Positions 32,574 through 33,270 of a DNA stretch of 64,000 nucleotides are shown piece by piece. The notes under the pieces were generated by a model that saw nothing but the letters and a program-made list of their open reading frames with translations, ran no database searches and was not told the origin of the DNA. The stretch is from Enterobacteria phage vB_EcoM_IME340. Position numbers and translations under genes: made by a program. The DNA lies in the sequence record MH051916. The stretch is one strand, 5' to 3'. The first letter of the stretch is position 1, and every line of letters starts with the position of its first letter.

Positions 32574-32815
32574 TGTCTGAACAAACTATTGAACAAAAAC
32601 TGTCTGCTGAAATCGTAACTCTGAAGTCTCGTATCCTTGATACTCAGGACCAAGCGGCTCGTCTGATGGAAGAATCCAAAATTCTGCAAGGAACTTTGGC
32701 TGAAATTGCTCGTGCAGTAGGTATCACTGGCGATACCATCAAAGTTGAAGAAATCGTTGAAGCTGTCAAGAATCTTACTGCTGAATCTGCAGATGAAGCA
32801 AAAGATGAAGAATGA
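32573..32815 (+). CDS. 57A: Tail fiber assembly chaperone gp57A
   Basis: 80 aa helical protein directly after gene 1. Confidence 0.85.
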
Positions 32816-33270
32816 TGGAATTTAAAGACTTTTCAACGGGTCTTTATGTAGCAGCTAAGTTTTCAGAATTAACACTTGATGCGCTGGAAGAACTTCAGCG
32901 CTCTTTACGTGTTCCTAATCCAGTTCCTAGAGAAAAAATTCATTCGACCATATGTTATTCGAGAGTAAATGTTCCATATGTTCCATCGAGTGGAAGTTTT
33001 GAAGTAGCTTCTTCTGGACATTTAGAAGTATGGAAAACACAAGATGGATCGACTCTTGTACTTGTGCTAGATTCTGAATATCTGCGCTGTCGACACATGT
33101 ATGCGCGAGCACTAGGTGCTACACATGATTTTGATGATTACACACCGCATATAACATTGTCTTATAATGTTGGGCCCTTATCATTTAGCGGTGATGTACA
33201 AATTCCGGTCGTATTAGATCGTGAATACAAAGAGCCTCTTAAACTCGATTGGGCAGATGATTTAAAATAA
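32812..33270 (+). CDS. 57B: gp57B, 2H phosphoesterase (Acb1 anti-CBASS nuclease family)
   Basis: 152 aa; two H-x-T/S motifs (HSTICY and HITLSY) of the 2H phosphoesterase fold; position after 57A. Confidence 0.85.

Follow-up and report, generated by a model that had tools for sequence, protein, structure and literature searches.

The open reading frame at positions 32812 to 33270 (+ strand) of the DNA analyzed here (a stretch of 64,000 nucleotides from Enterobacteria phage vB_EcoM_IME340, MH051916; referred to as the window) is, with a probability of ∼97%, acb1 (gene 57B) of a T4-like phage (Tequatrovirus), and its product is predicted to act as an anti-CBASS nuclease in this phage. The frame extends from ATG to TAA and encodes 152 amino acids plus the stop. 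Translated comparison with T4 gp57B (NP_049750.1/AAD42501.1; Hobbs et al. 2022, Nature 605:522) yielded identity at all 152 residues, and alignment of the DNA to the reference genome of T4 (AF158101) revealed three differences within the 459 nucleotides of the gene, all of which are synonymous because the proteins are identical. Two adjacent ATG codons (ATGATGG) leave the start uncertain by one codon; the first ATG, whose overlap with the stop of gene 57A (ATGA) is also found in T4, is used in the T4 record, and the second one, which results in 151 residues, is used in some other records. By translated search, a homolog was found in 1,470 of 50,697 phage records (444 with an identity of at least 99%), and the best matches, T4 record X03016 among them, were 100% identical. 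Local blastn aligned the whole window collinearly with T4 from ∼108.5 to ∼43.5 kb, in reverse orientation, the insertions and deletions falling at known plastic sites. Judged by its sequence, the window belongs to a T4-like phage (Tequatrovirus) whose Acb1 has the very amino acid sequence of that of T4. The original prediction, which had called the product a 57B homolog of the Acb1 anti-CBASS family, was borne out and even understated the case; the gene is already known, its product being the founding, biochemically and genetically characterized member of the family.

The significance of the assignment stems from this 100% identity together with a full-length match to Pfam family PF23474 (Anti-CBASS protein Acb1; E = 2.7e-60; 202.7 bits vs a curated cut-off of 27), in which residues 9–150 align with profile positions 1–144 of 144. 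The two H-x-T/S-x motifs to which the original prediction had pointed, and which it had regarded as intact, are indeed there: HSTI at residues 44–47 (32941..32952, +; H44 and T46) and HITL at residues 113–116 (33148..33159, +; H113 and T115) are the only H-x-[TS]-x motifs in the protein. Taken by itself, the motif pair is weak and not beyond chance; at least two H-x-[TS] occurred in 16% of 20,000 shuffles that preserved the composition of the protein, for which reason the pair was dropped as independent evidence. What identifies both motifs as catalytic is their position and their invariance among homologs, together with the published catalysis for the first and a published mutant for the second. 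In an alignment of the window protein with homologs from eight other phages, with identities of 30–66% (Serratia Muldoon, RB49, Aeromonas 60AhydR15PP, Acinetobacter Berthold, Vibrio D482, Cronobacter JC03, Klebsiella KMI9, and Salicola SCTP-2), G10, Y12, H44, T46, S50, V83, R94, G102, Y110, P112, H113, T115, and E138 were invariant in all nine sequences; the catalytic tetrad H44/T46/H113/T115 thus appears to be the most conserved feature of the Acb1 family. The homologs of JC03 (Pseudotevenvirus) and KMI9 (Slopekvirus) are longer (207 residues; L009:1459-2082 and L010:1459-2082), a C-terminal extension of ∼55 residues (…EHIEHRGDKWVVLNHDRTKELGEYDSKEAAEKRLRQIEYFKHNG) taking the place of the T4-type region around the lid tryptophan.

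The best match among solved structures (PDB 7t26/7t27; E = 4e-62) was Acb1 of Erwinia phage FBB1, solved as the apo form (7t26) and with bound 3′3′-cGAMP (7t27), with identity to 7t26 at 96 of 142 aligned positions (67.6%) over essentially the whole chain. The HxT/HxT tetrad, the stacking aromatic residues, and the C-terminal lid are common to both proteins; the FBB1 enzyme differs in stemming from a phage of another host genus, in an indel of one residue around position 80, and in many surface substitutions. Single-sequence AlphaFold2 prediction of the 152-residue protein resulted in a mean pLDDT of 37.9 and a pTM of 0.30, values too low for use. From homology to the crystal structure 7t26, a compact 2H phosphoesterase fold of the window protein is very likely. 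The lid corresponds to residues 145–152 (LDWADDLK, including W147; 33244..33267, +), its closing over the ligand being known from the FBB1 structure. Another protein deposited as “Anti-CBASS protein Acb1”, 2H PDE-9 (PDB 9q2g/9q2y; Doherty et al. 2025 preprint), has the same 2H fold, belongs to the same structural group, and cleaves 3′3′-cGAMP, but its sequence similarity to the window protein is marginal (E = 0.004), and its lid is N-terminal whereas that of T4 Acb1 is C-terminal.

Many phage records call the orthologous protein an RNA ligase or a putative RNA 2′,3′-cyclic phosphodiesterase, and the window protein itself matches PHROG 755, a family labeled “RNA ligase” (E = 5.3e-68). LigT/2′-5′ RNA ligase and other cellular 2H phosphoesterases belong to the 2H superfamily. 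They share with Acb1 a 2H fold bearing two HxT/S motifs, acid–base catalysis that needs no metal, and a cyclic phosphate intermediate (2′,3′-cyclic phosphate in the published mechanism of Acb1), and the tRNA genes ∼1.4 kb downstream of acb1 might fit a role of a LigT-like enzyme in RNA or tRNA repair. Such a role is nevertheless very improbable: a Pfam scan of the protein down to E = 0.1 returned PF23474 and no other family, LigT and 2′-5′ RNA ligase families included; the substrate of Acb1 is a cyclic oligonucleotide immune signal and its end product a 3′-phosphate; and both biochemistry and genetics of the identical T4 protein demonstrate cleavage of cyclic oligonucleotides and a CBASS-dependent phenotype. 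“RNA ligase” is a transferred family name and not a tested function; as an annotation of acb1 it was rejected because it lacks any LigT-family match and is contradicted by direct biochemistry. The label, propagated from PHROG 755 to orthologs in many recent phage records, is a systematic misannotation of a characterized anti-defense gene and should become “anti-CBASS nuclease Acb1”. NCBIfam contained no model for Acb1, for Acb2, or for either of the internal proteins encoded downstream (see below). Nothing in the sequence argues against the assignment as Acb1, the practical value of which lies in annotation and host-range prediction and little in discovery.

Because the window protein is identical to T4 Acb1, the published work on the latter (PMC9117128) applies directly, and chemistry, substrates, and in vivo phenotype are taken from there. 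The catalytic tetrad of T4 Acb1 consists of H44, T46, H113, and T115; Y12, W74, F107, and W147 stack on the bases, E141 contacts N6 of adenine, and residues 145–152 form the lid (PMC9117128). The window protein has every one of these residues at the position published for it. Recombinant T4 57B cleaves 3′3′-cGAMP, cUA, cAAA, and cAAG but not cGG, and both H44A and H44A/H113A are inactive; in vitro, Acb1 blocks activation of the CBASS effectors Cap5, CapV, and Cap4 (PMC9117128). Phage P1 facing a type III CBASS operon is rescued by Acb1, and CBASS operons of Yersinia aleksiciae and of E. coli restrict T4 that carries nonsense mutations in acb1 (Δacb1) (PMC9117128). In a transposon screen (HIDEN-SEQ preprint), 57B was dispensable on K-12 and was depleted on a CBASS-expressing host. 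The claim that T4 57B degrades the cyclic oligonucleotides of CBASS agrees with this literature, and the cleavage and CBASS plating assays proposed as checks are already answered for this sequence since they were published on the identical T4 protein.

In the phage studied here, Acb1 would therefore be expected to act as it does in T4, as a small nuclease that has a 2H-phosphoesterase fold and needs no metal. When the host CBASS senses infection and makes its cyclic di- or trinucleotide, the enzyme would bind this signal in a U-shaped pocket, in which Y12, W74, F107, and W147 would stack on the bases, E141 would read the N6 of adenine, and the lid would shut over the ligand. Acid–base catalysis by the tetrad would then let the 2′-OH of adenosine attack the 3′-5′ bond, which would lead, via the 2′,3′-cyclic phosphate intermediate, to a linear product with a 3′-phosphate, the cut being 3′ of adenosine. 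With its signal cut, the CBASS effector would never be activated and the phage could complete its cycle.

Whether CBASS is the only system against which such an activity is directed deserves consideration. T4 Acb1 degrades cAAA (i.e., cA3), cleavage of cA4 was also examined (PMC9117128), later work showed cleavage of 2′3′-c-di-AMP, and the structural group to which the enzyme belongs is active on type III CRISPR messengers as well. Its main selective role could accordingly be read more broadly, as that of a general eraser of cyclic oligonucleotides which also counters type III CRISPR (cA3/cA4) and other signaling defenses, at the cost of triggering Panoptes. Expression of Acb1 alone is sufficient to switch on type I Panoptes, and neither catalytically dead nor lid-deleted forms do so; T4 Acb1 lacking residues 145–152 does not activate Panoptes, from which its authors conclude that the lid is needed for catalysis. 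Type II Panoptes (cA3 signal) restricts Acb1-positive Tevenvirinae, and escapers carry mutations in acb1. Unlike T4 Acb1, 2H PDE-9 leaves Panoptes untriggered because it is poor at cleaving 2′3′-c-di-AMP (Doherty et al. 2025 preprint). This broader role is held only tentatively here; in vivo protection has been published for CBASS, none was found for type III CRISPR in the literature consulted, and the idea extends the anti-CBASS explanation rather than replacing it.

The anti-CBASS function would be lost if acb1 were present but silenced or decaying. Natural loss-of-function alleles, selected by Panoptes, are published for T4-like phages, e.g., the nonsense mutant in Bas43. In the window, the frame is intact, the product is identical to the active T4 enzyme, and the upstream overlaps of stop and start codons as well as the promoter-like motifs are kept as in T4, which makes an inactive allele highly improbable. 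An intact acb1 is a meaningful state, yet the common one.

Beside acb1, the window contains vs.4/acb2 (44146-44412, +), the product of which is 96.6% identical to T4 Vs.4. Acb2 serves the same purpose as Acb1, neutralizing CBASS signals, but is an unrelated protein, a cyclic-nucleotide sponge that sequesters rather than cleaves, and its expression reportedly precedes that of Acb1. Y8 and T68 are both intact in the window Acb2; in published work, Y8A abolishes binding, and T68M lowers it in Bas35. Since acb2 is also present, this phage has both a degrader and a sponge. With the two genes intact, resistance to many CBASS systems is to be expected, as is vulnerability to Panoptes guards, which sense the loss of their decoy cyclic nucleotides.

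Upstream, acb1 is preceded on the same strand by gene 57A (32573..32815, +; Pfam PF17594 GP57, E = 5.2e-51), encoding a tail-fiber assembly chaperone, the stop of which overlaps the start of acb1, and by gene 1 (31848..32573, +; Pfam PF21448 DNMK, E = 2.9e-106), the stop of which overlaps the start of 57A (TAATG). The claim that acb1 is co-transcribed with two structural-assembly genes therefore has to be amended with regard to their nature: 57A does encode an assembly chaperone, but gene 1 encodes a deoxynucleotide monophosphate (dNMP) kinase. Farther upstream are gene 3, which ends at 31798, and gene 2 (30337-31161). Generic scans of positions 30000 to 35000 remained at background level, both for sigma-70 promoter-like sites (19 vs 18.5 expected) and for terminator-like sites (2 vs 2.6 expected), for which reason T4-specific motifs were used instead. 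In the gap between gene 3 and gene 1, a middle-promoter-like site (31797..31824, +), consisting of a MotA-box AATGCTTCA followed by TATAAT, was found by pattern match only and is a candidate start of the 1-57A-acb1 transcript. Within gene 1, the T4 late-promoter motif TATAAATA is present (32210..32217, +), likewise as a motif match only, and T4 has it conserved at the corresponding position (75012). In transcriptome compilations, T4 57B is described as mainly middle/late, and another study mentions “later gene expression”; the MotA-type and TATAAATA motifs are consistent with this timing, and nothing more. Overlapping stop and start codons, the lack of a terminator-like site between the genes (the scan detected none between 31900 and 35000), and the promoter-like motifs upstream of gene 1 and within it let us infer co-transcription of gene 1, 57A, and acb1, for which the support is good; acb1 of this phage would thus probably be transcribed, with gene 1 and 57A, in the middle/late period.

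The order 3-1-57A-57B is kept in Tulanevirus, Lazarusvirus, Vibrio phage D482, Pseudotevenvirus, Slopekvirus, and Muldoonvirus, six T4-like genera or lineages mostly classified in Straboviridae; in the jumbo Salicola phage, the acb1 homolog is located elsewhere. T4 itself has the same flanks as the window, 3-1-57A upstream and trna.4/trna.2 with the tRNA cluster downstream. The sole local difference from T4 is the set of internal protein (IP) cassettes downstream of acb1, which are themselves known, named genes.

Where T4 has ipI just downstream of acb1, the window has two other genes. The first, at 33349..33621 (+), encodes an ip9-like internal head protein of 90 residues (PHROG 7673, “internal head protein”, E = 1e-54), ∼80% identical to products of genes annotated as ip9; the second, at 33682..33990 (+), is ip7, encoding an internal head protein of 102 residues (PHROG 2667, E = 2.7e-40) which is 96–97% identical to Ip7 of T2 and RB32. 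In the window, neither a translated match to T4 IpI nor a match to T4 ipII was found; by sequence comparison, the ipI slot beside acb1 is taken by the ip9-like gene and ip7. The expectation that internal-protein genes directly follow acb1 was thus correct as to the type of gene, but they are not the ipI of T4. Both proteins begin with the capsid-targeting sequence MKTFKEFINE/A (the slash marking cleavage after E), i.e., with the ∼10-residue N-terminal targeting sequence ending in (L/I)-x-E that defines T4-type internal proteins and is predicted to be recognized by the gp21 prohead protease. Each of the two genes is preceded by an early-type promoter-like cassette of its own; between acb1 and the first of them, the promoter scan located a sigma-70/T4 early-type site (TTTACA-17-TACTAT with an upstream TG; 33284..33312, +).

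In T4, the adjacency of acb1 to ipI, which encodes an injected inhibitor of GmrS/GmrD, has been read as an anti-defense island (PMC9117128). A 2025 study showed specific GmrSD variants to be blocked by Ip2 and Ip3 as well; it put the number of known Ips at “at least 10”, of which most have no known target. Since a different type IV restriction enzyme of the GmrSD type is blocked by each of Ip1, Ip2, and Ip3, inhibition of defenses is also a possible function of the ip9-like protein and Ip7; on this analogy, it is conceivable, if somewhat doubtful, that the two are injected and inhibit further GmrSD variants or defenses not yet matched to them and that the acb1-ip locus is a site of swappable anti-defense cassettes. 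To speak of an anti-defense hot spot, as the original prediction did, is therefore reasonable and already proposed in the literature for acb1-ipI of T4, but ipI is absent here, and the role of its two replacements can only be surmised.

The part of the ip9-like protein beyond the capsid-targeting peptide (residues ∼18–90) has matches of 33–49% identity in phages outside the T4 group, such as Escherichia phage M01 (45 kb), KS_S4 (58 kb), and Salmonella phages of ∼156 kb (e.g., aagejoakim); this cargo domain may circulate apart from the T4 packaging signal. A second IP locus surrounds denV, where four ORFs with capsid-targeting N-termini are located (40514-40795, 41274-41534, 41598-41912, and 41939-42517; all +), one of them being ipIII (95% identical to T4). 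Counting the two beside acb1, the window has six IP-like genes, compared with three in T4.

Divergence from T4 is unevenly distributed around acb1. Within a collinear block of 6.4 kb (27007-33370), acb1 is the least diverged gene (0.65%, 3 of 459 nucleotides) compared with 3.9% on average over the block (binomial P ∼1e-5); gene 2 differs at 1.3% and part of gene 5 at 6.3%, and similarity to T4 collapses just past the acb1 stop codon. The low divergence of acb1 has the look of recent recombination, with a tract that stops at the junction with the IP cassettes. Unusual selection was considered as the cause and set aside since a mosaic of recombination tracts fits equally well and selection is not separable from it with two genomes.

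Elsewhere in the window, several mobile or optional elements of T4 are missing, namely segD (between genes 23 and 24), segC together with 5.3 (between 5.1 and 5.4), trna.3, and ∼1 kb within nrdD, the last of which we infer to correspond to the I-TevII intron region. Blastn breakpoints and feature tables place the gaps at ∼1221-1282, ∼27007, 34232-34244, and ∼62413-62416. The tRNA cluster (34629-35456, +) comprises 10 genes vs 8 in T4; an additional tRNA-Tyr (35211-35297) and an additional tRNA-Asn (35302-35376) occupy the site of the T4 homing endonuclease gene segB, which is absent here. With the Rfam tRNA model, 9 of the 10 genes reached the gathering score, the tRNA-Tyr gene being missed, and the tRNA called Met(CAT) matches by position the one annotated as tRNA-Ile in T4.
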